The position numbers and the translations under genes are program-made. 64,000 nt of DNA, from assembly GCA_000004985.1 (NCBI GenBank), contig GG738928.1; one strand, given 5' to 3'. Every line of letters begins with the position of its first letter. Position 1 is the stretch's first letter. Shown here in pieces: positions 8,509 through 42,130 of the stretch. The stretch comes from Naegleria gruberi. Taxonomy: Eukaryota. The notes beneath the pieces were generated by a model. That model was not told where the DNA came from. It saw only the letters and a list, made by a program, of their open reading frames with translations, and did no database searches.

Positions 8509-8581
8509 AAGCGCATAGCTCAGTCGGGAGAGCAGCAGACCCATAAGCTGCAGGTCAGAGGTTCAATTCCTCTTGTTGTTT
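8509..8581 (+). tRNA. tRNA-Met (anticodon CAT)-like; possibly a pseudogene or a diverged initiator-like tRNA
   Basis: A box (TAGCTCAGTCGGGAGAGC) and B box (GGTTCAATTCC) are good. The anticodon loop is CCCATAA and the 1:72 pair is A:T, both initiator-like. The acceptor stem has 2 mismatches (AAGCGCA/TGTTGTT) and the anticodon stem has an A:G mismatch. Confidence 0.5.
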
Positions 8582-8766: not shown

Positions 8767-11700
8767 TTAAATCAATTTCGAATCATTCAACAAATTTTCT
8801 CTGGTTTTACCAGAATTTTCATAAAAAACAAACTCATCTGTTGTAGTAAATCTGGAAAAGGTATCATTCAAGTTGATAATAATCTGATCTTGTAGTGAGC
8901 TGATTGATTGTTGCAATTTTTCATGGAATGCTTCTGGTATTTCCTTTTCATTCTTTGATTTCATTTCTTGATTGTTCTTGGCAGAGTTGACCAATTCACT
9001 AAGTGATTTTCTCATTTGTTTGAATTCGTTTCTAGTTTCGGATGGAATGTTAACTTCCTTAATGGAGCCACTTTCAATATAATTGGTAAATAATTCTTCA
9101 ATCAATGAATTCACAGAGTCAATTCTGTCATTTGCTTTGATTAACTCTTGGAGTTGTTTCAGTTCCAAATATAAATGCAAGTTTTCTAATGAATATTCCT
9201 TTTTACAGAATGATTCGAATAGTTTCAGACCTTCTCTATTCGATAGTAATTGTTCCAATTCATCCTTTTCTTCATTACTCGATTGGTTTCTAAAATTCTT
9301 TTGTTTGATGAAATGAACTAATCTCACAATAAGTGCAAATCCTCCAAATACCAACAAGTAACTAAACAAGTACAATATTTCAAATAGCAATGAAATTGAA
9401 TCGTTCACTCTTGAATTTACATCACCTCTCTTGTAACTCAAACCTGACAATCCAATAATTTGTGAAATTACCAAAAATGTAAAGCAAACAATAAATAAAA
9501 TCATTTCCACTCTAAAGTATAATGGAGTATCGAGTTGAATGAACCAATCATAAGCTCTCTTGATTGGAACTTTTGCCATTTTCTTGGCAGTTTCCTTATC
9601 AAACTTTTGTAAAGCTTCCTTGTTAAACGAAAGTGAACTATTTGATAAATTACTTGTTGATTTTTCATTACTATCCACAAGCATTTCAGATTCATTTCTA
9701 GAATTCAAAAGTGACATGATCACATCTAACAAAATCAATGCACATATAAGAAATCCCAATGATAAAATCATAATTGTAAACGAAATTGAAACAATGTAAG
9801 AATATTCGATTCCTGTAATGACACTCGTTCTCACAAGAATTACCCACAACGTCCAATACATTAGGTTCACGGTCATAAAGATTCCCATGATGGAAATCAT
9901 TGCTCTTGTGGAGAGGAAAATTCTAATCACTCTCAAAATTTTGTCTCCCTTTTGGTACAATTGACTAGTTCTATCATTTTGGTTCAATGAGAATTTAATG
10001 GATAATCTATGATAGAAATATTTGAGAATGTGAAATCTTGATGTCTGATACAAGTATGAAAACATTGCTGTCAAAGTCAAAGTGTTTACAATAATTGTAA
10101 TAACATTCGAAACAATATTCGATGCCAAATTACCATTTTCCAATTGAATCACCGTCGACTCTGTCAATCCCTCACTCTTCAATGATAATATCAACCCATT
10201 TCTAGTAGTATCCAACAAAATACTCCTCTGAACTATCAGAAATAGTCCACTTTCCACCACCAATGCAAACATTCCAATAAACGGAGTTACAAATCGACTC
10301 GCCAATGGTTGAGATTTTCGCATCACAATCAAGGCAACGAGAATTGAACTCGACAAGATGAAAAATAAAACACCAAATGAAATTTGTGCAATGTACAATT
10401 CGGATAATTGTTCGGCAGCCCTTAATGAATCAGTTGCGGTGTTATTAAGGGAGTTTTCGATAAAGGCAGCGAAGAGTGTGGTGTGCGTACATTTACAAAT
10501 TAAATCTCCGTTTGATTGTAAAGTGGAAAGCGAGCAGCCGCTGGAATCCCATTGTAAAGTTGTTTCATTCCAGAATTTACAAGTGATTTGAGATGAATTG
10601 AGAGAATTGATTGTTTGATTCAATATTGTAAAGTTAATTGAAATTGGTTGAGTCAATTCTGAAAGTGGTAATGTTTTACCTCCTAAATAAAGAGTGAAAT
10701 CTTTAGAGTTGGTCAATTGAGTTTGATTTGAAGTAAATAGAGGATTAGTATAGGTTATGAGTGATAATCCAACTTCCTTATTGTAGCCATCGTATTTTGT
10801 TAGAATGTAATCCGAATCTAAACTAATGTCGGAGAATTTTTCTAATTTAGTGCTGTTAGAATTCTTAATAAATGTTGAAACTGTTACATTAATCAAATCT
10901 GATGAATAAACTGTGGAAATAATAGATTCGGATAATAATTTGACCGATTGCTGCAATAATAGAACAGATGTCAATTGAGTACAAGTATTCGAAACATTTG
11001 AGAAACCAAAAGAAAGTAAATTACTTGCACTTGTCAAGGTTGTTTGTAAATCAGAATCTGAAATTCTTTGCTTTGTAACGTAGCCAAGAGTTTCCTTTTC
11101 TTTTTTGTAAATTTCATTAACTTGATTCAAATAATTTCCTAATTTGTCATTAATTGCTGTAGCAACCTCATTGGAAGAAGCTGATAAAGTAATTTGTTTC
11201 AGATTTTCCAAAGCAGTGGACGGATTGGAAATGTCAATTGTCATCTTATTGACAGACTCTACAAGTACTGAACTAGTTACTTCCTTTCTCAATTTTAAAC
11301 TTGTATCATATGGAAATACAGTTGCAATACTACCCATTCTTGCTTTCAAAACTTCTGAAGAATCGTCCAAATTTGCACTAATCGAAACTGAACTAATCGA
11401 TTGAGAATATTCAGTCCCCAACGCATCCAAACAAATTACAAACAATTCCAAACTTTGACTTGTAGCCAAACTTGTTTCATTCAAATAGGGAAGATACACA
11501 GAATCTCTTCCACTTGTCAAAAATTCTGAAATTCTAATCATTGAATTCTTAAATTTAAATCCAAAAGCAAATTTGAGAGGAGAAAGAAACAATCGACTCG
11601 CATTCGAATCTGTAAAATTCCAAGCACCTACAACTTCCTCAATAATAAAACTTGTTTTCAGTGCAACACCTGACAATGGTTGAATATTAACAATTGCCAT

Positions 11701-13604
11701 TGGATTTCGAATTGGTGGTGCGACGAGAATTACTTGTTGTGAAATGGCGATGATTTGATCCTTAATTGGCTTAATAAGGAGTGTGAAGGTGAGATTTCCA
11801 GAGGATTGGATGGTTGGTTGGATTTTGATGGAAATGATGGGATTGAAGGTCAATGTGAATAAGTTGGCGTTGTTTTTTGGTTTCGTCAAGATTCCAATAA
11901 CATTTTCATCTGCTGAAATAACTTCAGAACCAAACATGAATGAATATTTCAATGAAATGGTACAATTTGCAGTAGCACACTCATCCCTTGTTAATTTCAA
12001 ATCTGAACTAGTTCTCAATTCAACGCTCACAATATTGAAATCAACATTGTTTTTCACACCATTCACAAGTACTTGTGGAATTCCAATAGCATTCAGTGAT
12101 CTTTCCACTAAAAGTGAACAATCTATACCTAAATATCCTCCAGTACAAGTACAAAAGTCAGGTTGTAGACAATTGCCATTTCCAGAACAAACATTCGGTG
12201 AATTAGCCGAAACTCCAAAACAAATTGGAATGAAACAATTAGGTCCAGTATATCCAGGTGAACAAGTACAATTATTTGAAGAAGCACAAATACCATTTCC
12301 TGAACAAACTCTATTATCATTTGCAGCAATTCCAAAACAACCAATCGAGCCACAATTATTTCCATAAAAACCTGGTTGACATTGACACTTGTTCATTTCA
12401 ATGCATTCACCCCTTCCTGAGCAAACACTGCTACTGTTAGTACTCTCAATTCCAAAACACCAATTTGTAACACACATTGTTTTGAACTCATTCAAATAAT
12501 AACCACTTTCACATGATGGAGTTAGTGATCTAATTCTCTTTTTCAAAAATTCTGAAATATAAATTACACCACTTGTCTCATTAAATACTAAACCTCTTGC
12601 ATCACTCACTGAACTATCCAGAGCATCAGTGTTTTCATATGAAGTTGTGCTATTTCCAGCAATCATTGTAAGAGTTCCATTCTTGTCAATTCTGAAAATT
12701 CTTCCCTTATATGTTTCTGTTACAAAGACAGTTTCGTCCTTGGTAACGAATAAAGCACCACCTCCAATTGGGGAACCAGTGAATGCTAGTGTTGAAATAT
12801 ATCCAGTTTCGTTTATCACTCTAACACCTTTCGTATCTGATAGGAAAATCTTTCCATTCCTAACAAAAATATCAAAAGGAGACTGAAGAATAGCACTAGT
12901 AGCTAGAACACCCTCTCCAGAATACGAAGAATCCAAATCACTTCCTGCTATTAATGAAATTATTCCATTCTTGACTAATCTAACTCTCGACTTGTCTATC
13001 AGGTAAAATTCATTCTCTGAAATTGCAAAGATTGAATTTGGACCTTTCAGAGCACTAAAAGCAGATCCATTTTCAGTGAAGGAAGACAAGGAGAAATCAG
13101 AATAGTTTCCAGCAACTGTGGAGACGAAACTATTCGGCCAATCACGAAGAGAAAGTTTTCTGACAATTCTATGTATTCTAATGATTAAAGATAATGATGA
13201 AATTGTTATATTGTGATATTGTGTGAAAATGTCATGTTATTAGCTTACCTGTCAACGTAAAAGAGGGTGTCATTGAAAATACTCGAGTCAGCCACAGTTG
13301 ACATACAAATAGTGTTCTGATTACCATCAGGAGTGTATATTGAAGTGTTGTTTCCAATCTTGTTAGGAGAAAAACTTTCACTTTCCAATGAAAAGATTCG
13401 AATAGTACGGTTTAAACCATCAGAAACGATTAGTTCGTTGTTGTATAAGGAAATTCCATACATTCCAATATCTGGTGTAGAAATTGGACCAATAGTCTTG
13501 ATAATGTATTTAACACTAGCTTGTTTTTGTTCTTGTCCATCAACAGCCACAAACAGTAACAACACAATTGACAACAACAACCATGTATGACAGTTGACTT
13601 TCAT
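8767..13604 (-). CDS. Giant adhesion-GPCR-like receptor. Domain order: signal peptide, NHL-like repeats, 3-4 EGF-like Cys repeats, long extracellular region, GAIN/GPS motif, 7TM, cytoplasmic tail, C-terminal RGS domain. Two exons (13249..13604; 8767..13177), intron about 71 nt with an alternative acceptor at 13160.
   Basis: ATG at 13604 with signal peptide MKVNCHTWLLLSIVLLLFVAV. The donor GTAAGC follows ...LFYVDR and the acceptor is in phase. EGF-like CSGNGICASSNNCTCSPGYTGPNC repeats are present. The GPS motif is CKFWNETTLQWDSSGCSLSTLQSNGDLICKCTHTTLFAAF. It is followed by 7 hydrophobic helices. The RGS-like block is FESFCKKEYSLENLHLYLELKQLQELI. Confidence 0.7.
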
Positions 13605-14452: not shown

Positions 14453-14525
14453 TGCCGACACCAGGGATCGAACCAGGGACCTTAAGATCTTCAGTCTTAC
14501 GCTCTCCCAACTGAGCTATGTCGGC
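14453..14525 (-). tRNA. tRNA-Phe (GAA)
   Basis: The reverse complement GCCGACATAGCTCAGTTGGGAGAGCGTAAGACTGAAGATCTTAAGGTCCCTGGTTCGATCCCTGGTGTCGGC folds as a canonical cloverleaf. The acceptor stem is perfect, the anticodon loop is CTGAAGA, and the T-loop is TTCGATC. Confidence 0.9.
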
Positions 14526-16255: not shown

Positions 16256-19200
16256 ATGGCAAATCCAGCCAAATTAAAAAAAATGCGAACTTTATTATCT
16301 TTCGTAATCTTGCTCTATTTATTCACTATTGTGGTCACAGGTGAGGTGAAATCCATTCAGCAACAACAGCAACGAGAATCCTCATTCACTTTCTTCCTGG
16401 ATTCTTATCAAGGAACGGAAACAAATGTTTCATGTCTTGATGAATCCATTCCATGTGTTTACATGTCTCAAGTTATAGACTCGGCACGATCAATATTACA
16501 GCTGGGAAACAATTCCTCAACATTATCTTTAGAGATGAATATTCTAGTAAGAGGAGAAGTAATTGACTGCGATATTCTAATTGACTTTACTAATTTTACA
16601 TCAAATTTTAAATTGAATATTGTTGGGTGGGATGATGACGACTATTTCCTATCATCATGTTATCCTTTTCTACATGTAAATAGTAAAATAGATGAGTTGA
16701 CCATTGTAAAGGGGTATTCAATTCGAATAATAATTGTATTTAATTATGAAATGAAGAATTTATCCATTTCTAAATGTAAAGGAAGTCTTACTATTCAAAC
16801 TTCAATTGAAAATGCAAACATCTTGGAAAGCGAATTTAATTCATTAGAAATTACAAGTCAGATTCAAAATCTTGTTATACTAAACGATTCGATTACTTAC
16901 TTACAAGGAAATTTGAAAGCTAAACAAGTGAAAATGGAAACTATTAATATTTCCAATTTTAAATTAGTGGAAATTAAGAATTGTCATTGGAGTTCATTCT
17001 CAGGGACAAGTTTATTTCATGGCGGAGAGAAATTCTCAATTCTTTCAAGTATTATTACAGGCCCAATGATGTTTGAAGTTGTGAGTGTTTTGGAAATAAT
17101 CAACGTCACTGTTAGCAGGGTTAATTTTGAGCCAGAGAATGGAAATTTTTTTGGAATAGCCACAGTTGACCAAGTGACAATTGAAAGATGTAATTTTGTG
17201 GATAATACTATTGGTGGAAGTATGATTTCAGTACAACGTTGTAAAAATTTACTTATTGTTAATTGTAAACATTCCAATAATTTATCCAAGTTTATTACAA
17301 TCCTGTCATCTAGTAGGAATCGAATTACAATTCAAGATTCTGAATTTTTCAATAATCAGGCAAGTGATGCCTTAATTGTTTTTGATTCCAATTATGTTGT
17401 AGATAGCACTATATTACTATTAGATAATTGTAATTTTGTGAATAATATTGGAGGATTGACTGGATCCGCTCTGAAAATAACTAAAGCTAATGTTCTCATT
17501 TCGAGTTGTAACTTTTCATTTAATAAGGCAGGTTATGGAGGAGCTGTCTATATGATAAGTCAACTTTCTACTGTTATCGAATATTCAAATTTCACTAACA
17601 ATGAAGCAACTCAATCAGGCGGTGCAATTTATGTGGGAGATGTTTCAAATCTACGACAATGGGAAACAGTAGAAACAATTTGTGATTCTAATAACGCATT
17701 GGAAGCTGGAGGATGTTTATATATGAAAGGTAAATCAAAGATTGATGTGGTGTATAATTTTGCTGGAATCAATAAGGCAATTTGTTATGGTAACAATATT
17801 GCTACAGAACTCACAAAAAAGAAGTTTGAATTTAGACTCAATGGATTCGAATATCAATTGATTACCAATCAGAGTATTCAAATTTATCCAGGAGAATCCC
17901 TGGATTTGAGAATTATATTATCAGATAGATACAATCAGAAAAGTGTAATGCTTCCTGAAAATCAAATGTCTATGAAAATCAATTCTAATAATTTAGTTTT
18001 ACAAACACAAGGTTTTACAAGCGGAAATGATAGCATACTTTCGAATAATATTCAAATACTTCTTAAAGAATATCAATATGCCAACTTCCATGAAGAAACA
18101 ACTTTTTCATTCATATTGAAAGATATCGAACATTCGATTAGAATGAAATTGGTTGATTGTCCACCAGGATATACCATTTCTAAAAATTATGGAAATGTCA
18201 AATGTGAATACATTCCAATAGAAATCATTCTTCCAGCTGCTATTGTTGGTGCTATTTCCTTAATTATTATATTTGTGACTGTAATTTTGGTGGGAATTTA
18301 TATTGTTAAAAAACTCAAAAAATTGAGAAGACAAGAAAGAGCAGAAAAGGAAATTCAAAAGAAATTTATTGATAATTCTTTTGTTTTCAATAATGGCAGC
18401 AATGGTTCAGATTTGAGTGTTCCACTGGTTGAAAAATCTTTCAACTCTGAGGATTCTATTCGATACACTATTCCAATTGCAGAAATTGATATATTATCTA
18501 AAATTGGAGAAGGATCTAACGGATTAGTATATAAAGCAAAGTGGAACAGGACAGATGTTGCCATAAAACAATTGAAAACTTTAGGAGAAGAGGATGATGA
18601 AGAGTTTGAAAGAGAAGCTCTTTTAATGAGCTCATTAAGACATCCGTCAGTTGTTAGTTGCTACGGAGTTTCAATAACCAACGACAGCAAGTATATGGTT
18701 GTAAGTACTTACTTTTGAGAAATAATTTGAATTTATTGTATATTAGGTGGAATACTTGGAAAATGGAAGTCTTGAGAAGGCACTCTACAAGTCTAAAATT
18801 GGAAAAGAAAAATTGTCATTCGAAACTAAATTGAATATTCTCTTGGATGTTGGAAAGGGTATGACCTATCTCCATTCGATAAGACCTAACAAGATTATTC
18901 ATAGGTAAGTTTAGTTTCTATTTACTTTGGAGAGTTAACAATTTTCAGAGATTTGAAACCGGGAAATATTTTGCTTACCAAAAATTTAAATGCCAAAGTG
19001 AGTGACTTTGGGCTCAGTAAGATGGTTTCGAATAATACAGCCACAATGACCACAAATGTTGGAACCTTATTATACATTGTAAGTTTTTCACAATATTCCA
19101 TTTAACTAATTTAGCAATTTCCATCTTTAGGCACCAGTAAGTTTTAACAACAAATTAATCATTGATTTATTATTTAATATTTTAGGAATTATTATCTAAT

Positions 19201-19578
19201 TATCACAAAGGACAAACAACAAAATTGGATGTTTATTCATTTGGACTAATCATGTGGGAAGTTCTATTTGAAATGGTTCCATTTTCCAATGAACTATCTG
19301 ATGCAACAACACCATTCTCTATTTTATTACAAGTAACCAATGGATTAAGACCTTCTCTTTCTGTTATGGGAGAACATTTCGAATATATTCAAGAATGGAT
19401 TGAAGATCACTTTACAATGAGAGAAATTCAAAAAATTGGAAAGCAAACCATTGAAAAATGTTTAAAAGATTATATTGAAGTGATGAAACTCTGTTGGTAT
19501 AAGGAACCAAGCAATAGACCAGAATTTATTGAAATTACAGAAAGTTTAGAATTAATTATTGAACAAATAAGGAAATGA
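16256..19578 (+). CDS. Receptor-type protein kinase (TKL-like). Extracellular region with Pmp-type / parallel beta-helix repeats (FxxN...GGAIY), single TM, cytoplasmic kinase. Five exons: 16256..18700, 18747..18904, 18949..19078, 19131..19136 (6-nt microexon), 19186..19578.
   Basis: Kinase motifs: GEGSNGLVYKAKW, VAIKQLK, HRDLKPGNILL, DFG, APE. The introns all have GTAAGT donors and T-rich ...AG acceptors in phase. TM segment is ILPAAIVGAISLIIIFVTVILVGIYIV. The GGAVYM / GGAIYV repeats are typical of beta-helix Pmp-like repeats. Confidence 0.75.
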
Positions 19579-19977
19579 TGATAATATTTTGACACTCATT
19601 CCAATTTTTCCAACATTCATTGATGGATTATTATCACCCAACTGAACAAGTATTTTAACATTTTCTTCAAGAATAATAAAATTTTGTAATCTTGCACCTT
19701 GTACAAGGTGCCTAATTAGCAACATGGATCAAAATCCAAAAATAAAAAATACAAAATAAAACACATTAAAAAAAACCAATAACAAATACCGTAGTAGCCG
19801 CATTATCTTTTTTTTTGCAAATACAACAACAACACTAGCTACGAATTAATCATCAACAATAACAACAACTACCCTAGCAATAATAATAACTACGCGTTAA
19901 CAAAATCTATCTTTTTCGGATATGCCTCTCTTCTTGTAAAATATTAAAACTATAATAATTAAACCCTAGAATATATA

Positions 19978-20547
19978 ATGAACCGTATTTCTGAACCTAA
20001 TCATACATTACATAATACATGGACCTTATGGTATCACAGTCCTAGAAGTAAAATTAATGAACAAAATTATAAGGCTTTTTTCACCAAAGTTAAAGCTTTT
20101 ACTACAATAGAGGATTTTTGGCGATTATTTAATAATGTTCGTTCACCATCATGTTTACCAATCGGAACAACATATTATTTAATGAAGGATGCTATTAAAC
20201 CAGAGTGGGAAGATCCAAATTGTATCAATGGAGGAGAAATGGTTTTTAGTTTTGCTAAAAAATCAAGACAAGAAGCTGATCAATGGTGGTTGTTCTCTTG
20301 TATTATGTGTATCGGAGAAAACTTTATTGGATTGGGAGATCATATTTGTGGATGTACAGTTGCAAACAGAAAGAGTATGATTAGAATTAGTTTTTGGCTT
20401 GATACTGATGAGGATGAATACGTCAAACGTTTGGAAGACCAATGCAAAGGTGCATTTGACATTCTCAGTGCTGGCTCAACCTTGTTCAAATTCGATTTTC
20501 GATCATTTAGAGCCAATTTGTCCAAGATATCGAAAGCTGATGATTAA
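19978..20547 (+). CDS. Translation initiation factor eIF4E family member (intronless copy, 189 aa)
   Basis: Has the W-rich cap-binding core (TWTLWYH..., W..F, EDP.C.NGG, W, CTVANRK...). Confidence 0.85.
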   Translation: MNRISEPNHTLHNTWTLWYHSPRSKINEQNYKAFFTKVKAFTTIEDFWRLFNNVRSPSCLPIGTTYYLMKDAIKPEWEDPNCINGGEMVFSFAKKSRQEADQWWLFSCIMCIGENFIGLGDHICGCTVANRKSMIRISFWLDTDEDEYVKRLEDQCKGAFDILSAGSTLFKFDFRSFRANLSKISKADD

Positions 20548-21032
20548 TAAATATTGGCAAATCATCATGGACTATTAAGAATTCAATTTTTATTACTTTC
20601 AGAATATCTTACAAGGTTTTTATGTATTCAACAATATCTCACTTGACAATCACTGTTGTTGTAAGGTTGTGTGAACAATAAGAGACCTGTTTAAAGATTT
20701 TTAATAGACATGAGCATGAGTAAATGAAGGAACCACCTAAAAGGGAATATTCAAATTAATAACAATACATCTCAATTCCAATTCCAATCACATCTTCTTA
20801 ATTGTTTTGTAAAATTATTTTTCAAAAACATCAAATGATGTAATAATTTTTATTAGGCTTGAAGACAAACTCGAAAATGTAAAATTAAAAATAATTATAA
20901 AAAAAAAATAAAAGAGTAGTAATCTAGACGTACCTCGCACTCTTTTACCTTCATCATCAAGCCTTGTTTTATTTAATAATAATAATACATTATCATCAAG
21001 CAACAACAATATTACTAGAATAGTACGATACT

Positions 21033-21703
21033 ATGAGCAGCGAAAAGAAGGTAATTGATCAAGAAGAAATTGAAAATGACACTGAAGCCGAAGTTAATGA
21101 AGAAGTAGCAGAAAGGCCTATTTTAGAAAATACTTGGACATTATGGTATCATAACCCTCAAGCTAAACTTAACGAGCAAAACTATTCTCACTTTTACAAT
21201 GAAGTCTATACATTCTCGGATGTTGAAACATTTTGGAGTGTTTTTAATCACATTAGAGGACCTAGTGAAATATCGACCGGTACAACTTACTTTTTATTGA
21301 AGGAAGGTATAAAACCAGAATGGGAAGATCCAAAATGTATTGGTGGTGGTGAATGGGTTTATAGTTTCCCTAAAAAGCACGTTCCAGCTGATCAATACTG
21401 GTTAGATTTAGTGATGTTTTGTGTAGGAGAGTCATTTACTTATTCGGATAATTTGCTTGGATGTTGTGTTGCCAACAGAAAGAATCAAGTATGTAATATT
21501 TAAATAATTAATTTATAATAACTTTAATATAGATTCGTATCAATTTGTGGGTAGATACATTGGATGAAACAATAGCAAAGAGATTTGGAGAGCAATTCAA
21601 ATTTGAAGCCTTAAAAATAGGAGCAAATACAAATATCAAAATAGACTTTAAATCTTTCAAAGATCAATTGGACGGTAAAAAGACAGTTTTACAAGTAGTG
21701 TAA
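21033..21703 (+). CDS. Second eIF4E family member, two exons (21033..21488, 21533..21703) with a 44-nt intron
   Basis: TWTLWYHNP... core. The donor GTATGT comes after ...CVANRKNQ and the acceptor ATAG is in phase. The downstream exon IRINLWVDTLDE... aligns with the paralog's IRISFWLDTDEDE. Confidence 0.8.
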
Positions 21704-21831
21704 ATTCCTTTTTAAAATGAATTTCAAAACGAACTCGACTGAAAAGGAGCTCATTATCGTTCGATTCAGAAAATCTTAAATAAATAACAAAAAAACAATA
21801 TAAAATTTATCTAAATTTAGGTAAATAATAT

Positions 21832-23310
21832 TTATATAGCCTCAATTAAATGATAATTCTTCTTTCCTAATCTCAATACAGCAATTGATCCATTACCTGC
21901 CACAAGATCAGCTTCTGTCATGACATATTTTGGATCTATTTGTCTCTTGTAATTAATGTAAAAACCTCCACTCTTGATCAATTTACCCAATTCAGATTTG
22001 GATGGTCCAAGCTTGAGAGCTAAAGCAATATCTATAATTGGCTTAGATAAAAGATCTTCCTTTGGTACTTGTCCACCAACAGAATCCTTCATTAGTGATG
22101 TAATATCTTTCTTTGATAAGGTCTTTAAAATTTCAATTGCTTCCTCACTGCTAGCTCCAAATAATAAATTTGTACATTTTTGTACCTTTTCCAATTGTTC
22201 CTTTCCGTGAATTTGTGTTGTTAATTCTTCAGCAAGTCTTTGTTGAGCAATTCTCTTTTCTGGTTGCTGATTGTGTTCTTGTAAGATTTGGTCAATATCT
22301 TCCAAGCTAACAAATGTTAACATTTTCAATAATTTCTCCACATCAGCATCTTGAACTCTGAGGAAATATTGATAAAAATCAAAGACAGAAGTCATTTCAG
22401 GATTGAGCCAGACAGCATTACCCATAGATTTACCAAATTTAACTCCATCAGCAGTTGTGAGTAAAGGAATTGTCATACCACTGCATACTGATTGACAACT
22501 TTCTGGCATGGCTGTTTGCTTTTTCTTTATGAATTCCAATCCACTTGTAATATTTCCCCATTGATCAGATCCTCCAATTTGAAGTCTTACGTTATTTGAG
22601 TTCAATAAATGGAAAAAATCATAACTTTGGAAAAGTGAGTAGGAAAATTCAGTAAAAGTCATACCACCATTATCAGCATCAGCATTTTCAACTCTAGATT
22701 TAACACTGTCCAATCTTAACATGTTAGCAATTTGGAAATATTTTCCAACATTTCTCAATAAATCAATCATTTTCATTTCTCCCAACCAATCAGCATTATT
22801 GACAACTGTGACATTGTTCTTAGAGGAGAAGAAAGAATTCATTTCTCTCTTCAATCCTTCAATATTATTATTAATTGTTGATTCATCCAAGAGAGGTCTC
22901 TCTGTTTTTCTGCCACTTGGATCACCAATTCTACCAGTTGCACCACCAACAAGACAATAAATATGAACATTCTTTGGATTAAAAGCCAATTGGAATCTCT
23001 TCAAAGTTTGAAGAACAAGCAAATTGCCAACATGAAGCCCCGAAGCTGTAGGATCAAAACCAGCATAAATACCAATAGACTTGGCCAATTCACTACCACT
23101 GTTCATTTCTTGCATTAAATTATCAAATCCCGAAGTAGCATCATTATAAATTCCTCTCTTTTTTAAATCGGAAATAAATTCATTATTATTTGATGATGAA
23201 GTTTGATTAAATCTCCTTTGAATATTGTTTCCTCCGATTAAATACTTTCTGTTCTTTAAAAAAAGGCCCGAGTCAACAAGGCTTGTTTGACGAAGAAGGC
23301 TTCGTTGCAT
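21832..23310 (-). CDS. Tyrosyl-tRNA synthetase, bacterial/mitochondrial type (class I aaRS with C-terminal S4-like domain)
   Basis: HIGH motif (HVGNLL), KMSKS-like KFGKS, the class Ic TyrRS core, a C-terminal S4-type RNA-binding region, and an N-terminal presequence-like extension. ATG at 23310. Confidence 0.85.
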   Translation of the reverse strand: MQRSLLRQTSLVDSGLFLKNRKYLIGGNNIQRRFNQTSSSNNNEFISDLKKRGIYNDATSGFDNLMQEMNSGSELAKSIGIYAGFDPTASGLHVGNLLVLQTLKRFQLAFNPKNVHIYCLVGGATGRIGDPSGRKTERPLLDESTINNNIEGLKREMNSFFSSKNNVTVVNNADWLGEMKMIDLLRNVGKYFQIANMLRLDSVKSRVENADADNGGMTFTEFSYSLFQSYDFFHLLNSNNVRLQIGGSDQWGNITSGLEFIKKKQTAMPESCQSVCSGMTIPLLTTADGVKFGKSMGNAVWLNPEMTSVFDFYQYFLRVQDADVEKLLKMLTFVSLEDIDQILQEHNQQPEKRIAQQRLAEELTTQIHGKEQLEKVQKCTNLLFGASSEEAIEILKTLSKKDITSLMKDSVGGQVPKEDLLSKPIIDIALALKLGPSKSELGKLIKSGGFYINYKRQIDPKYVMTEADLVAGNGSIAVLRLGKKNYHLIEAI

Positions 23311-23491
23311 TTTTTTTCAAAAATTCAATCAAAATTAATTATCCTAAATTGGATATTTTAAATAATTATTTTCATATGTTTTTAACTATTAAATATTAAG
23401 CTAATTTTATTAAATTATGAGTATTGAATTAATTCTCGCAGTCAACTTGATATTTAATGTTGTAAAAAATATTTAAAAACATTTAAAAAAA

Positions 23492-34055: not shown

Positions 34056-35065
34056 TGATTTTTTAAATGGCATTACTTAATGAATCAATATTGATATCAA
34101 TAAAAACAAGCTTCTTTGTTGAATTTGTATTAAAGTGTAAAATCTGCAACAAAAGACTACAGCACCACAGGTTCCCAAGTTGTCTCCAACCTCAGCACTG
34201 ATGTGGCTCGACGATGCTTAACTTCTCAAATCGGACGGGATGAGGTGCATTCATCGTGATATGGCCGTAGCCATTCACATCCTTAATATTAAAGTTTATT
34301 AATATTGTAAAACGTATAATTCTATAATTGGAAATTTCATTCATTTGACTATCAGAAATTATTAACTTCGACATATATTGAATTTGCAATATTATTATCC
34401 TAAAAAAGAAAAGAATGATAGAAAGTTGTGTAATCTATTTTTAAAACTAGAGTGTTGAAGTCTTAATTTCCATATTGAAACTGTTGGTTAATTTAGAAAC
34501 CAATAAAACCACAATAACAAATACAATTTCTCTTTTCTCCTTTCCAAAACTATATTTTAGAGCTAATTATATTGAGTATTACAAATAGTTACCATTTAAT
34601 GGAACAACAGACCACTAAGTCAGTGAATCTCCCTAAGTAACTGGAAGATCCACTTACTACTGGTAAAGTAGTTGGGAATCGAGAGAGAGGATTTCTTAAA
34701 AAAGAAGTCAGCTCTCAACATATCCCGATAAGATGAACTGTATGTAATTCTTTTGCATATTTTGATAAGGAAATTAAAATTGTCTGACGTAATTTGTACG
34801 AAACCTGCAATTTTGAAATTCTTCAATAAGATTCCAATTCAAGAGCTGCCACAAAATGAAAAACAACCTGTTGAAAATAAATTTCTCTTTTAAAATCAAA
34901 TAAAAATTAAGAACTATCATATTTTATTAACACAGCTTCTTATGATAAAGGTTGTGTTAATAAAATTAGCTTAAACTGCAATAGCTCATAATAAATTAGT
35001 AAAAGATTTAATTTGAATTATCTTTATGAACTTTAGAGTATAAATTATAGTTTAATAAATTAATC

Positions 35066-36181
35066 TTAGTGTCTTGGACCGTAGTCTCTACTGTCTCTAG
35101 GACGAGATTCAAACTCATTACGAGATGATCCTTGATTGTTGTTCTTATTTGAATCATTGGTTGTTCTTCCATATGAAGGTCTATCAGAATAATTTCCATA
35201 AGATTGATGTCTGTCATAATATGCTCCTCCTCTATTGTTGTTGTTATTGTAAGAACGAGGTGGTGGAATTTCAATTTGATTTGAATTATCAGACACTCTA
35301 CCATAAGAAGATGTTGGACCATAATAGGATGAAGAATTATTTCTTGAATCAACTCTTCCATAGTGAGGTGAATTATTTTGTGGAGGAGGGTAAGGTTGAT
35401 ATCTATTATTATTATTGTTGGAATAGTGATAATCACGAGTTGATCGTGGATTTCTGTATGGTGATGATGGCCTAGAAGATGACGATCCATATCGATCTCG
35501 ATCATCTCGGAATGGAGGAGAAGGTGGAGAATAATTATCAGAGTGACGATGATGATCTGATCCATTGTTTCCTCCACGATGATAGTCATTATTATAGGAT
35601 GATGATCTGCTACTATCACGATCATTATCATAAGATCTTCTACCAGACATTGAACCTCCTCCTCTTGGTTCTCTTCCACCTCTTGGTCCTCGTTTCTTTA
35701 GCATCTTTATATAATCATCTCTCTTCATACCACCATCTTTTCCTCTTCCGTATTGTCTCCCTTCTACGAAACCTGTATCGATGGCAATTTTAAGAGCACG
35801 ATTATTTAATTTACATCCTCTACAATATTTAACGCATTCCTCTGCATCGGATCTGTGATAGAACTCAACAAAACAAAATCCACAAGGTGTTAACGTATTT
35901 CTATTTAAACCCATTACAACTCGCTTAACTTCTCCACATTTTTCAAACAATTCGTATATTTGCTCCTCCTTGGTATAAAAACTTAGATTTTCTACATAGA
36001 TTGTTGAAGATTGAGAAAGTGCCCTCTCGAAATCCTCTTCATTTCCGCCCTCATTTACATAGTGTTTTAATAAATATTCATATTCTCTCTTGCTTCCGTG
36101 AAAAAATTTTAAAGGATGATGAGCTTCGAGAAGATGAGCCATTTTTTTTGTATCTAAATTTTTATTCTTCCCCTTCAACAT
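35066..36181 (-). CDS. Nuclear cap-binding protein subunit 2 (CBP20/NCBP2) with a long RG/RS/Tyr/Asn-rich C-terminal extension. Alternative start at 36142 (MAHLL, A-rich leader).
   Basis: RRM block [52 protein letters not shown]....Y..G..L..R...[12 protein letters not shown] aligns to CBP20. The track's first codon is GTG. Confidence 0.8.
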
Positions 36182-36473
36182 TAATTCATCGAGCCTTCTT
36201 TGCACAAAGGAATATCAACACCACAAACATAGCTTAGCATAGCAGACAAAGAGGCTTTGACAGAGTTGTGGATTCTTTGCCATCACCCTTGACTAGACAT
36301 GGTACAAGAAAACATTTTGCACAACATTGGAATGCCCTTTGAAATGAATTATCATAACATACACACCATTAATACCTTACTGCCCTCTTATTGTGACAGG
36401 TCCATTTATCTATTGTTTATTGTCACAGCACAGTATGAGGACACAGTAATGAATTAACATCTTCTTTTAAAAA

Positions 36474-39400
36474 ATGCCTCAAGATAGAAGGGCCAACCTC
36501 TTGCTCTTGATTATCACAGTTATTTTGTGTTTCGCAGCAACGGCCGACTTGTCTAAGGGAATTTTAACGGAGGCAGAATATCAAACCTACATCTCCAATT
36601 CATGCCCTTCTAAGCCTCTCTCCACTGATGCTTGGTACTCTGAGGAAAGTAACTTGATAAATATTATTCTTGCGGGTGATAATTCAAAGCTTCCTCTGAT
36701 CTACCCTCAGGAGTATTCGACGAATAACACTATTGTAAGGGATGATATTCTCAATACAACTACAACAAGCAACTCTTCACCAGCAACAACAATATTACAA
36801 TCAGGAAACAATACAACAGTGAACAACTCCTCCTCAACAAGCAACACAACTATTACCATTATTCAAGGGTGGGATGATCTTCTCAAAGTTCTTAATGAGA
36901 CTTTGAAACCCAACGCTACCCTCGCTGATAACTCAACAAGTGGAAATAATAGTTCTCTAGGATCGAATGGTTCAATCATTTTTAATTCCACCAATTCACA
37001 AACAACTACTAATGGAAATGTACCTCTGTTGAATACTACCCTTAACTCAACCACAAACTCTAGCCCTTCTGTTGGAACAAATACAACAAATACTCAGTTA
37101 TCCTCCAATACAACCCCTAGTGTTATTTCGAATAGTACTGGTACAGCTTCGACAATCAATTCCACTAATGCTAACCTGAACACAGTGAATGGAACAAGCG
37201 GAAGTACAGAAATTGGTTCGACCTATGGATCCAACAGCACTTCTGGTCAAGGTAATAGCACAACCACGAACACGCCATTTGGTTCTAACTCTAATTCCAT
37301 AGGATCAACAATAGTAACTAACGGAACTGTTGCAGCCGGTGCAATTTCTAGTTCAACAGTAACCTCAAACGGTGGGTATGTTGGCTCCAATACCTCTGGT
37401 TCAATAAGCACAACTTCAACTGGATCTAATAGCCAAGGATTAGGATCTAGCTCCTCCACAAATGTCTCTGCTAATAATACTGCAACTGTTAGTGGACCTT
37501 CAAGTGGATTTAATTCTACTTCTGGGGCAACTTCTGGGGCAAACAACGGTTCCGTTACAACAAGTACTGGAACAAATGGTCAATCAACTACTGGAACAAG
37601 CTTAGGATCGACCTCCTCTAATGGTTCAAACAGTGGTTCAACTAATGGAACAAATACAGGTTCCGTTTCCACAAGTACTGGAACAAGTGGTTCCTCTTCA
37701 AGTGTTTCAACAAACTCAGGATCAACAAGCTCTTCTAACTCTGGTTCAACTAATGGAGCAAACACCGGATCAATTGGCGTTTCTAACTCTGGATCTTCTA
37801 TTGGAACAAATACTGGTTCTGGTTCAACAATCACTGGAACCAGTTCAGGTTCTTCAACTAGTTCTAACACCAATACAGGAAACAATAATGTCTCCAATTC
37901 TGGATTAAATGGTCAAGGAACAAATTCTACTTCAAGCTCCTCAGCTACTAACATTTCAGGTTCAAATAATACTGGATCAAGTAATCAAGGAAGTAATTCA
38001 GGATCCAGTTCTACTGGAACAAGTAGCACTTCAAGTACTGGATTAAATGGTAGCGTTTCTTCAGGTGGTTCTAACACTGGAACAAATGGAGTATCAAATA
38101 ATGGATCAGCAACTGGCATTGCTCCCAATGTCTCTGGAACAAGTGGTAGTTCCTCTTCAAGTGTTTCAAACACTGTCTCCTCAAACTCAGGTTCGAGTGC
38201 TAATAATACTTCAACTGTTAGTGGACCTTCAGCAGGATCTAATTCTACTTCTGGAACAACTTCTGGAGCAAACAGCGGTTCCGTTACAACAAGTACTGGA
38301 ACAAACGGTCAATCAAATTCTGGAGCTAGCTCAGGATCTACCTCCTCTGGCTCTTCAAGTGGTTCGAACAGTGGTCCTGGCTCTAATACTGGTACAAGTG
38401 ATACTAATACAGGGTCAACAAGCTCTTCTAACTCTGGTTCTTCGAGTGGAGCAAGTACTGGTTCAGGTTCTTCAACAAATTCTAACACTAATCCAGGAAA
38501 CAACAATGTCTCCAATTCTGGATTAAATGGTCAAGGAACAAATTCTGCTTTAGGCTCCTCAGCTACTAACATTTCAGGAGCAAGTAATACTGGACAAGTT
38601 CTACATCTCAAGCTCTGGATTAAGTAATTCAGGATCCAGTTCTACTGGATCAAGTAGCACTTCAAGTACTGGATTAAATGGTGGCTCTTCTACAGGTGGT
38701 TCTAACACTGGAACAAATGGAGTATCAAATAATGGATCAGCAACTGGCATTGCTCCCAATGTCTCTGGAACAAGTGGTAGTTCCTCTTCAAGTGTTTCAA
38801 ACACTGTCTCCGCAAGCTCAGGTTCGAGTGCTAATACTTCAACTGTTAGTGGACCTTCAGCAGGATCTAATTCTACTTCTGGAACAACTTCTGGAGCAAA
38901 CAGCGGTTCCGTTACAACAAGTACTGGAACAAACGGTCAATCAAATTCTGGAGCTAGCTCAGGATCTACCTCCTTTGGCTCTTCAAGTGGTTCTACCAAT
39001 GCTGGACCCAATTCTAGTAGTAATTCAACGGTCAGTGGTGGTTCTTCAAATGCATCTGGTTTTACAAGTACTGGACCGAATACTCAAGGTGGTTCATTAT
39101 CTGACTCCTCAAATACTGGAACTGCTAGCACTCCAAGTGCTGGATTAAGTAGTGGATCTTCTTCAGGTGGTTCTAACACTGGGACAAATGGAGCATCAAA
39201 TAATGTTTCTGGAACAAATGGTGGTTCATCTTCTAGTGTAACAAACAGTGGTTCTGGTTCTAATACTGGTATTAATACTGGAACAATTGGCGTTTCTAAC
39301 TCTGGATCTTCTATAGGAACTGGGGTAAATACTGGTGCTGGAGCAAGTTCAGGATCTTCAACAAATTCTAACATCAATACAGGAACCAATAGTGTCTCCA

Positions 39401-42130
39401 ATTCTGGATTAAATGGTCAAGGAACAAATTCTACTTCAAGCTCCTCAGCTACTAACATTTCAGGTTCAAGTTATACTGGTACAGGAGGTACTACCTCTTC
39501 AAGTTCTGGATTAAGTGGTGGTTCTTCGTCAGGTAATGCTATTACTGGATCAACAACTGGCAACACTGCAAATGTCTATGGAGGAAATGGTGTTATCAAT
39601 ACAGGATCAACCAGCACTGGAGCAAATACTGGTTTACCAAGCACAGGACCTTCAACTACTCAATCACTGGAACAATTGGTGTTATCAATTCAGGATCAAC
39701 GAGCTCTTCTAACTCTGGATCTTCGCCTGGAGCAAATACTGGTTCTGGTACAACAATCACTGGAACTAGTTCAGGATCTTCAACAAATTCTAACACTAAT
39801 ACAGGAACCAATAGTGTATCAGGTTCAAATACTAGTGGCTCTATCACAAGCCCATCCACTGTATCCACTAGCTCTTCTAACATTGGAACAAATACTGGTT
39901 CCGGTTCGAGTAATACTGGAACTTCTAGTAATGGATCAATTGTTTCAAATAGTGGCTCCACAAGTACTGAAACTACTAGCACCCCAAATACTGGATTAAA
40001 TGGTGGTTTTTATTCAGGTGGTTCCAACACTGGAACAAATGGAGTATCAAATAATGAATCAACAACTGGTATCACTACAAATGTTTCTGGAACAATTGGG
40101 GGTTCATCTTCTAGTGTATCAAATAGTGGTTCTGGTTCTAATACTGGTATTAATACTGGAACAATTGGCGCTTCTAACTCTGGATCTTCTATTGGAACAA
40201 ATAATGGTTCTGGTTCAACAATCACTGGAACCAGTTCAGGATCTTCAACTAGTTCTAACATCAATACAGGAAACAATAATGTCTCCAATTCTGGATTAAA
40301 TGGTCAAGGAACAAATTCTACTTCAAGCTCTTCAGCTACTAACATTTCGGGTTCAAGTAATACTGGTACAGGAGGTACTACCTCTTCAAGTTCTGGATTA
40401 AGTGGTGGTTCTTCTTCTGGTGGTTCTAACACTGGAACAACTGAATCAACAATTGGCAACACTGCAAATGTCTATGGAGGAAATGGTGTTATCAATACAG
40501 GATCAACCATTTCTGGAACAAACACTGGTTTACCAAGCACAGGAGCATCAACTACTTCAACAGGCAATCCTGGTTCTGGTTCAGCAAACACTGGAACCAC
40601 TTCAAACGGTTCTACCAATACAGGTACCACAATTAATAGTGGTTCAGGATCTACCAATACAGGTACCACAATTAATAGTGGTTCAGTATCTGGTTCTTCA
40701 ACAGGTTTAAACAACTCTGGTTCTTCAACAAATAACAGTAGCTCAACAATTTCTACCACAACAAACCCAGCCACTTCCAGTGGTTCAGGATCTTCAACAA
40801 ATTCTAACACTAATACAGGAAACAATAATGTCTCCAATTCTGGATCAAATGGTCAAGGAACAAATTCTGCTTCAAGCTCTTCAGCTACTAACATTTCAGG
40901 TTCAAATACTAGTGGTTCAAGCTCATCTTCTGGTTCTTCTAACACTGGAGCAAATACTGGATTAACAAGCACAGGACCATCCAATACTCCAACCAATAAT
41001 GGGGGTTCCTCTAATTCTGGGTCAAGCTCTAGTGGAACTAGTGGTTCAACTTCAGTTATTTTTGGAGCAACAAGCTCCTCCAATCCTAACTCTGGCTCTA
41101 ATACTGGTACAAGTGGTGATACCAATACAGGATCAACGAGCTCTTCTAACTCTGGATCTTCGACTGGGGCAAATACTGCTTCAAGCAATGCTGGATCAGG
41201 TACAAACAATGGAAACAATGGATCAACAAGTTCAAATAGCAATTCAACAAGTTATAGTGCTCTTGATACTCTTCGTAAAGAAATAGAACGATTAGTTACA
41301 GATATTATTGGGCGACCTGATCCAAACCTGCCAACACCAGATCTTCAAAAAGGAATAGACACACTTAAAAATGACATTCTTGGTGTCAAACCTGCCTCAC
41401 CGACTACTACTAGTCTACCACCAACTCAACAAACTCTAACAGCTCAATTAACAACTCACCAACATCAAACAATAATGTTACAAAACCTTCTAACAATACA
41501 AACACAACCACAACCCTTAACGCCTCAAAAAGCACAACCCCAACAAGGAACTCAACCACTACTTCGACTAGTGTATCAACCACAACAACCGATAGTACTT
41601 CCAATGCTATTCAGTCAAGTAATAGAAACAACAATGCTGGAAGTCCAATCAGATGTAAACAGAAATGTCCTGTTAGGTATGAACAGAAAGTGTGTATAAC
41701 CAAAAGAAAAACCAGTAGTTCTTCTTCTGTTGTTGCATCCAATATTGTTGCAGTCATGGCAGAGAACATTGCCACCATTAAGAATGGATCACCTGATGGG
41801 TTAATAATTGGTTTATCTGTTGCAGGAGGTGTGTTAGCAATTCTGTGTTGTACAGGATCGTCTATCATTGGATGTGTTCTGTACGCTAAGAGAAAGAGAA
41901 ATAATTTCTGGAATCTTTATGAAGATAAAAATGTCAGAATGCTTATGGAGGGTCACATTGATGAAAGTGCATATGCAGATGTTGAATTAGAGGATGATGA
42001 AGAATTTGATCCACTAGAAGCAAAATCTTCTTACTCTGGCTCTAATGAAGATGATTTCAAGTTTGACGAAGAATCAGAAGAATCTTCAGAATCAGATAAA
42101 CAAGAAGAAGAAATTGAATTTGAATATTAA
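36474..42130 (+). CDS. Giant mucin-like type I membrane protein. Domain order: signal peptide, ~1800 aa Ser/Thr/Gly/Asn-rich region built from higher-order tandem repeats, TM helix, acidic cytoplasmic tail. The reading frame breaks at about 38595, 39655 and 41400-41460 (indels or unrecognised introns).
   Basis: Signal peptide MPQDRRANLLLLIITVILCFAATA. The conserved block aattctggattaaatggtcaaggaacaaattct...gctactaacatttcagg recurs at about 37893, 38514, 39393, 40283 and 40833. The terminal segment 41690..42130 encodes the TM (GLIIGLSVAGGVLAILCCTGSSIIGCVLYA) and a D/E-rich tail in a frame that connects back through S/T/N-rich sequence. Confidence 0.5.

Follow-up and report, generated by a model that had tools for sequence, protein, structure and literature searches.

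A predicted six-nucleotide microexon encoding the Ala-Pro of the APE motif in a receptor-like kinase gene of Naegleria gruberi

The coding microexons of plants, which measure 15 nucleotides (nt) or less and are missed by reference annotations (Yu et al. 2022, Nat Commun; PMC8831610), are close counterparts of the structure described here, a putative 6-nt exon in a receptor-like kinase gene of the heterolobosean amoeboflagellate Naegleria gruberi. The gene, NAEGRDRAFT_75740, occupies positions 16256-19578 on the forward strand of a 64-kilobase (kb) stretch of contig GG738928.1 (assembly GCA_000004985.1), the whole of which was analyzed and is referred to as the window. Plant microexons (1-15 nt) lie between canonical introns, encode portions of conserved motifs and escape annotation on a broad scale, and in Chlamydomonas the Pkinase and PK_Tyr_Ser-Thr domains are the top microexon-containing domains (PMC8831610). 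Consecutive removal of the introns on either side has been proposed for them, and half-spliced intermediates have been observed (PMC8831610). A classic plant case cited in the same source is the constitutive, experimentally dissected 9-nt mini-exon of potato invertase, which supplies residues to a conserved motif of the catalytic domain; it is spliced with the help of signals located in its neighboring introns, which are longer, U-rich and have defined enhancer requirements (PMC8831610). The neuronal microexons of animals (3-27 nt; SRRM4/nSR100 or PRP-40) are regulated cassettes with long flanking introns and dedicated enhancers and factors. Microexons and their misannotation are well documented in animals too.

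Between exons 3 and 5 of the Naegleria gene, the 107 nt that separate positions 19078 and 19186 would comprise two short spliceosomal introns of 52 and 49 nt placed around a 6-nt coding exon at 19131-19136. This hexamer, GCACCA, would supply the Ala-Pro of the APE motif of the kinase. On the sequence evidence given below, the main messenger RNA (mRNA) very probably contains the hexamer, and we infer that its inclusion is constitutive. The structure resembles plant microexons in being a tiny internal coding exon between two canonical GT-AG introns, in encoding part of a conserved motif, in being absent from the reference annotation and recoverable by homology, in having strong donors (GTRAGT in plants) and in the consecutive removal proposed for its flanking introns (PMC8831610). 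It differs in its host lineage and in that both flanking introns are very short; moreover, plant microexons were validated by RNA sequencing (RNA-seq) and reverse transcription polymerase chain reaction (PMC8831610), whereas the Naegleria microexon is predicted from sequence. Its likeness to the invertase mini-exon lies in predicted constitutive use and in the encoding of catalytic-domain residues. With animal neuronal microexons it shares a very short length, preservation of frame and the alteration of a few residues in a functional surface, but its introns are tiny, its residues belong to the core of a catalytic domain rather than to a modulatory surface, and no sign of regulation was seen. 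It is therefore a known type of microexon in a lineage where none had been pointed out, and it would not surprise a specialist; a full-text literature search found no paper substantively linking microexons with Naegleria.

A full-length search with the assembled gene model returned one close match, P0001, a 'predicted protein [Naegleria gruberi]' (EFC36588.1, XP_002669332.1, NAEGRDRAFT_75740, UniProt D2W2W9). This JGI/NCBI model takes out all 107 nt as a single intron and reads ...GTLLYI--ELLSNYHKG..., so that, were it right, the hexamer would never be included and the product would be a kinase or pseudokinase without Ala-Pro. Both the outer donor and the outer acceptor of such an intron are consensus sites. 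The preliminary description had argued that neither the reading frame nor the APE motif could be restored by any other means than the microexon. The first half of that claim fails, since joining 19078 to 19186 also stays in frame. The second half stands: the motif appears only if 19131-19136 is included.

Profile comparisons favored the two residues. Adding Ala-Pro raised the Pfam score of Pkinase from 160.8 to 177.8 bits (+17.0) and that of PK_Tyr_Ser-Thr from 174.2 to 184.9 bits (+10.7), so that the annotated single intron costs 11 to 17 bits against kinase profiles. We also enumerated all in-frame, stop-free models of the interval 19040-19230 that contain one or two GT-AG introns, each 30 nt or longer (n = 11), and scored them with a family hidden Markov model built from relatives with the query left out. 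The microexon model ranked first with 400.0 bits, as opposed to 384.4 bits for the annotated single intron, while the remaining nine models (352.8-384.6 bits) used poor sites such as GTTTTA or GTTGGA. Only the microexon and single-intron models had GTAAGT donors and TTTAG acceptors throughout. No Rfam family matched within the interval, and a non-coding RNA reading was rejected.

The hexamer is bordered by canonical sites (TTTAG/GCACCA/GTAAGT at 19126-19142), and both flanking introns are complete, with lengths comparable to those of the other introns of the gene (46 and 44 nt). The pattern AG-GCNCCN-GTAAGT occurs once in the window, at this very site, and 0.03 matches are expected over both strands of the window when one mismatch is allowed. 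Given the base composition of the introns of the gene, the chance of finding the pattern within the 107-nt intron is about 1e-7, a coincidence that the single-intron model requires of a perfect acceptor, GCNCCN and a perfect GTAAGT. The chance rises to about 2e-6 if Ala or Ser and GTWAGT are permitted, and is about 2e-5 for a bare AG-GCNCCN-GT. Ten GTAAGT hexamers lie on the forward strand of the window, four of which are donors of the kinase gene. The site is the only one in the window where two GTAAGT donors are placed around a short potential exon, no other double-GTAAGT candidate having been found there.

Comparison with related kinase genes, which had been suggested as a check, bears both on the residues and on the introns. 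When 14 relatives were aligned, the conservation of Pro175 and Glu176 reached at least 90%, and Ala or Ser followed by Pro precedes Glu in 13 of the 14; the exception is N. lovaniensis P0086, which has Ser-Asn (S-N). An additional N. gruberi paralogue (P0204) has Cys-Pro (C-P) before Glu. A two-residue gap before Glu, as the single-intron model requires, was seen in none of the relatives examined.

At the DNA level, two relatives place a donor exactly behind the equivalent two codons, a further point against the single intron. A JGI metagenome contig (L001), whose encoded kinase is 58-64% identical, reads ...TTT TAT ATT GCA CCA/GTAAGTAGC...(46 nt)...TTCACAG/GAA ATT CTA..., with the identical hexamer and an identical GTAAGT donor right behind it in phase 0, while the Ile and Ala codons directly adjoin. 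In N. lovaniensis, the gene of the paralogue P0086 (L036) reads ...TAC ATG TCG AAT/GTAAGTACG...(67 nt)...CAAAATAG/GAA ATG ATC..., with a GTAAGT donor and an AATAG acceptor. In position and phase, the intron between AP and E (AP/E) of the window gene thus agrees with those of L001 (46 nt) and L036 (67 nt). Because both relatives carry it there, a donor directly behind the two codons that precede Glu is a feature of the family, and the donor at 19137 is its homologue.

The intron between Ile and AP (I/AP) has a different distribution. It is absent in the seven relatives checked in DNA (L001, L002, L003, L036, L037, L038 and L004); the N. gruberi gene and its variant in the second strain were the only places where it was seen. 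L002, L003, L037 and L038 have no intron at either position, and several metagenomic open reading frames (ORFs) read straight through APE without either one. L004 ends or frameshifts just past ...YMSPE and is uninformative on the AP/E intron, as are, with regard to intron positions, the 29 loci of a metagenome scan, which are all distant kinases with best-segment identities of 26-48%. Mini-introns were also observed elsewhere in the kinase domain of relatives, after NILL in L038 (about 2380-2500) and after GEG in L002 (2051-2090; 40 nt, GTAAGT...GTTAG). Intron positions in this kinase family turn over fast.

A second strain provided an independent view of the locus. An ENA metagenome contig (L005, from ERR1078381; its Logan assembly is L006) is 98.8% identical to window positions 18497-23326 and shares the two-intron structure, which excludes an artefact of assembly. 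Its hexamer is GCACCT, in the context AG/GCACCT/GTAAGT, where the change of CCA to CCT is synonymous (Pro). Neither mini-intron shows a change at its splice sites (four in all), and each differs by a single substitution, at 19093 and 19150, respectively. Where the two sequences of the gene overlap, the exons differ at 12 positions, 9 of them synonymous. The comparison is consistent with coding constraint, and the retention of all four sites together with Ala-Pro coding speaks against a single intron. As a separate observation, intron 2 of the strain has a GTTAGT instead of a GTAAGT donor and is 2 nt shorter (window 18907 and 18930-18931; L005 412 and about 435). GTWAGT donors and minor variation in mini-intron length are evidently tolerated in Naegleria.

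A number of points weigh against inclusion of the hexamer. Candidate introns in the window span 35-231 nt, so that a single intron of 107 nt is ordinary, and intron length was dropped as evidence. Skipping preserves the frame, would not trigger nonsense-mediated decay and is permissible on coding grounds. Only one strain substitution falls within the hexamer, where about one third of random changes would be synonymous, which makes it weak evidence alone. Furthermore, no transcript-derived product of the gene was found in a collection of 15 billion proteins queried with the whole protein, its kinase domain and a 112-residue segment spanning the junction; matches to the gene itself were the public model and a genomic ORF of the second strain only. 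The full two-intron structure is known from one close strain, and the depth of its conservation is consequently shallow.

The public model also departs from the DNA elsewhere. Within exon 1 it treats 210 nt (16547-16756; 70 codons, GTAAGA...GAAG) as intronic, a stretch that is in frame and stop-free inside an uninterrupted ORF of 820 codons (16256-18718) that contains exon 1 in an AT-rich genome, and it starts at Met10 (16283) rather than at Met1 (16256). The predicted 210-nt intron is probably spurious, and the true protein is therefore likely 1043 rather than 962 amino acids long. Dropping these in-frame codons makes the model an unreliable guide to the structure of the gene, which counts against its single 107-nt intron. 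Taken together, the evidence makes the annotated structure highly improbable, and XP_002669332.1 without Ala-Pro is almost certainly a misannotation, an ordinary annotation error and not new biology. The coordinates, lengths and splice motifs of the preliminary description, read directly from the DNA, are all exact. Its assignment of the Ala-Pro of APE to 19131-19136 is borne out by residue conservation, profile gains, the shared intron position and the second strain, and its expectation that so tiny an exon is easily missed is illustrated by the two residues absent from the public protein.

If the hexamer is an exon, the manner of its splicing deserves attention. Each intron would be recognized as a unit across about 50 nt (intron definition), because each has its own GTAAGT donor, T-rich tract and TAG acceptor. 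Candidate branch sites, picked by eye from the sequence, are CTAAT at 19106-19110 in intron 3 and TTAAT or TTGAT in intron 4. A 3' splice-site complex and a U1 small nuclear ribonucleoprotein would not fit on six bases simultaneously; since acceptor-side and donor-side complexes could not share the exon, the two introns would most likely be removed one after the other, an order that we infer. Once the first excision is done, the hexamer would be part of an exon of normal size, and the mature mRNA would encode ...GTLLYI-AP-ELLSNYHKG..., restoring the APE of an otherwise fully equipped kinase domain.

The same arrangement could in principle serve as a cassette, with both mRNAs present at appreciable levels and encoding an APE-containing (active) and an AP-less (probably inactive) receptor kinase. 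Both isoforms would be in frame, and very short exons skip readily in other systems. Transcriptomes of N. gruberi do show exon skipping, though it is rare outside animals (PMC6142364), and intron retention outweighs skipping in non-animal eukaryotes (PMC6142364; PMC8831610). Against a cassette, both mini-introns are self-complete with full consensus sites, short introns favor pairing of the nearest sites, and the sequence analysis gave no sign of regulation; we regard it as unlikely. A regulated cassette in a unicellular excavate, in which skipping would yield a catalytically crippled AP-less form, so that splicing switched the activation-segment anchor on or off, appears very unlikely. RNA-seq data exist for N. 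gruberi (PRJEB23822; PMC6142364), and Table 1 lists the strings that would distinguish inclusion, skipping and half-spliced intermediates. Constitutive inclusion of the microexon remains the reading that we adopt in what follows.

The contrasting distributions of the two introns bear on how the microexon may have originated. In a neighbor-joining tree of about 130 aligned residues, the gene of the window groups with L001, L002, L003, L038 and L036, and within this subclade the AP/E intron is scattered (window, L001 and L036) while the I/AP intron is unique to the window gene. The simplest scenario would combine an old AP/E intron and several losses with a later gain of the I/AP intron 6 nt upstream, a history to which we attach about as much belief as doubt. 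The tree is poorly supported, with bootstrap values of 30-86%, which counts against the proposed intron gain. The Naegleria lineage is usually described as keeping ancestral introns. Tentatively, the microexon probably arose as a second intron landed 6 nt upstream of an existing one. Other origins of intron 3 were tried and set aside: its derivation from intron 4 by duplication, or from an introner, was rejected with an alignment no better than shuffles (z = 0.67), and no further copies of either mini-intron were found in the window; intronization of coding sequence is unlikely, since 52 nt is not a multiple of 3. If true, a recent, lineage-specific gain of the I/AP intron beside an ancient intron would be the birth of a microexon caught in the act, and the locus may exemplify the creation of microexons through a second intron gained beside an old one.

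The consequences of the finding are mainly practical. Without two core APE residues, XP_002669332.1 (D2W2W9) would be misread as an atypical kinase or a pseudokinase in kinome surveys. The microexon would also indicate that heterolobosean genes whose introns are very short can contain ultra-short exons and that these escape the N. gruberi annotation of 2010, so that a genome-wide, homology-guided re-scan is justified. As a clean case of two complete introns of about 50 nt lying 6 nt apart, the locus would be a convenient substrate for examining how an intron-definition spliceosome treats adjacent sites that cannot be occupied simultaneously. Current understanding is left unchanged; the value of the finding lies in correcting XP_002669332.1 and in motivating a microexon-aware re-annotation of Naegleria.

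The encoded protein has, in order, a hydrophobic N-terminus, an ectodomain of about 650 residues, one hydrophobic, putative transmembrane stretch and a C-terminal kinase domain; the hydrophobic N-terminus and the segment IILPAAIVGAISLIIIFVTVILVGIYIV were read from the translation. The repeats of the ectodomain appear to resemble Chlamydia Pmp or parallel beta-helix repeats. Its Chlam_PMP match is weak (15.2 bits, E = 0.025, under the Pfam cut-off of 20.6); related full-length matches carry PF02415 and PF13229, and the relative L038 has a faint Chlam_PMP match upstream of its kinase. In the gene model the kinase domain scored 179.7 bits against PK_Tyr_Ser-Thr and 173.6 bits against Pkinase (Pfam), and the model with Ala-Pro passes the curated Pfam cut-offs of both families (184.9 against 23.1 and 177.8 against 31.7 bits, respectively).

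The catalytic motifs GEGSNG, VAIK, HRDLKPGN and DFG are all intact in the translation, and the protein looks like an active kinase whose sole 'defect' would come from its annotation. The APE motif (Hanks-Hunter subdomain VIII) anchors the activation segment and P+1 loop at their C-terminal end, and its Glu forms a salt bridge to a conserved Arg of subdomain XI. Among known kinases the Raf-like/TKL type appears closest, the best matches among solved structures being the Raf-like kinase CTR1 of Arabidopsis (3ppz/3p86) and human TAK1, with kinase domains aligning over about 210-230 residues (E 1e-37 to 1e-41). With the microexon included, GTLLYIAPELL matches GTPEWMAPEVL of CTR1 gap-free (MAPE in the solved structures). 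Both of these kinases are cytosolic, whereas the Naegleria protein is a predicted type-I membrane protein with a Pmp/beta-helix-like ectodomain. The exon-intron structure of the gene is given in Table 1.

Table 1. Exons and introns of the kinase gene, and strings expected in its transcripts.
Feature	Positions	Strand	Description
Exon 1	16256-18700	+	Putative signal peptide, Pmp/beta-helix-like ectodomain, putative transmembrane segment, juxtamembrane region, kinase N-lobe; ends ...SKYMV
Intron 1	18701-18746	+	46 nt, GTAAGT...ATTAG, phase 0; identical in strain contig L005
Exon 2	18747-18904	+	VEYLENGSL...NKIIH and first two bases of Arg codon; identical to P0001
Intron 2	18905-18948	+	44 nt, GTAAGT...TTCAG, phase 2; splits Arg codon of HRD
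Exon 3	18949-19078	+	(R)DLKPGN...DFG...TNVGTLLYI; last codons AAT GTT GGA ACC TTA TTA TAC ATT (NVGTLLYI); ends in phase 0
Intron 3 (I/AP)	19079-19130	+	52 nt, GTAAGT...CTTTAG, 3' end CATCTTTAG
Microexon (predicted)	19131-19136	+	GCACCA, Ala-Pro of kinase APE motif (subdomain VIII)
Intron 4 (AP/E)	19137-19185	+	49 nt, GTAAGT...TTTTAG, 3' end AATATTTTAG, phase 0
Exon 5	19186-19578	+	ELLSNYHKG...IEQIRK and TGA stop (19576-19578); first codons GAA TTA TTA TCT AAT TAT CAC AAA GGA, phase 0; kinase C-lobe
Skipped junction	19078/19186		Would read ...TTATACATT/GAATTATTA...
mRNA with microexon			Would contain ...TTATACATTGCACCAGAATTATTA..., likewise ...ATTGCACCAGAA...
Diagnostic string, inclusion			GGAACCTTATTATACATTGCACCAGAATTATTATCTAATTATC
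Diagnostic string, skipping			GGAACCTTATTATACATTGAATTATTATCTAATTATC
Half-spliced intermediates			Would read ...ACATTGCACCAGTAAGTTTTAAC... and ...CATCTTTAGGCACCAGAATTATT...

The kinase gene has no further kinase beside it within the window. Directly downstream are two tandem genes of the eIF4E family (Pfam IF4E), the first at 19978-20547 (+; E = 1e-41), and, on the opposite strand, a tyrosyl-tRNA synthetase gene, in a region that extends to about 23300. The second strain has these downstream genes in the same order (L005 1486-4813). Upstream, an ORF of 1440 amino acids at 8767-13089 (-) has teneurin-like EGF repeats, a GPS motif, multiple hydrophobic segments and a C-terminal RGS domain, and looks like an RGS fusion of the adhesion G protein-coupled receptor type. 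Relatives of the kinase in two other heterolobosean contigs adjoin RGS or DEP-RGS genes (L003 1088-2356, minus strand; L038 4111-5378, minus strand). The adjacency of kinase and RGS genes may represent a recurrent neighborhood, or just the abundance of RGS genes.

Several other features of the window were recorded. A tRNA-Phe(GAA) gene at 14453-14525 (-) was the sole tRNA found by ARAGORN; a tRNA at 8509-8581 (+) was detected with Rfam (45.8 bits) and not called by ARAGORN. A 5S rRNA gene (34154-34272, minus strand; 100.8 bits) lies among protein-coding genes. The region 36000-42000 has a G+C content of 0.39-0.42, compared with about 0.30 elsewhere in the window, and holds short Ser/Thr/Gly-rich coding tandem repeats as well as GTTAGTGGACCT... 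units that recur about 630-730 nt apart at 37488, 38217 and 38845. This region is probably a repetitive surface-protein gene.

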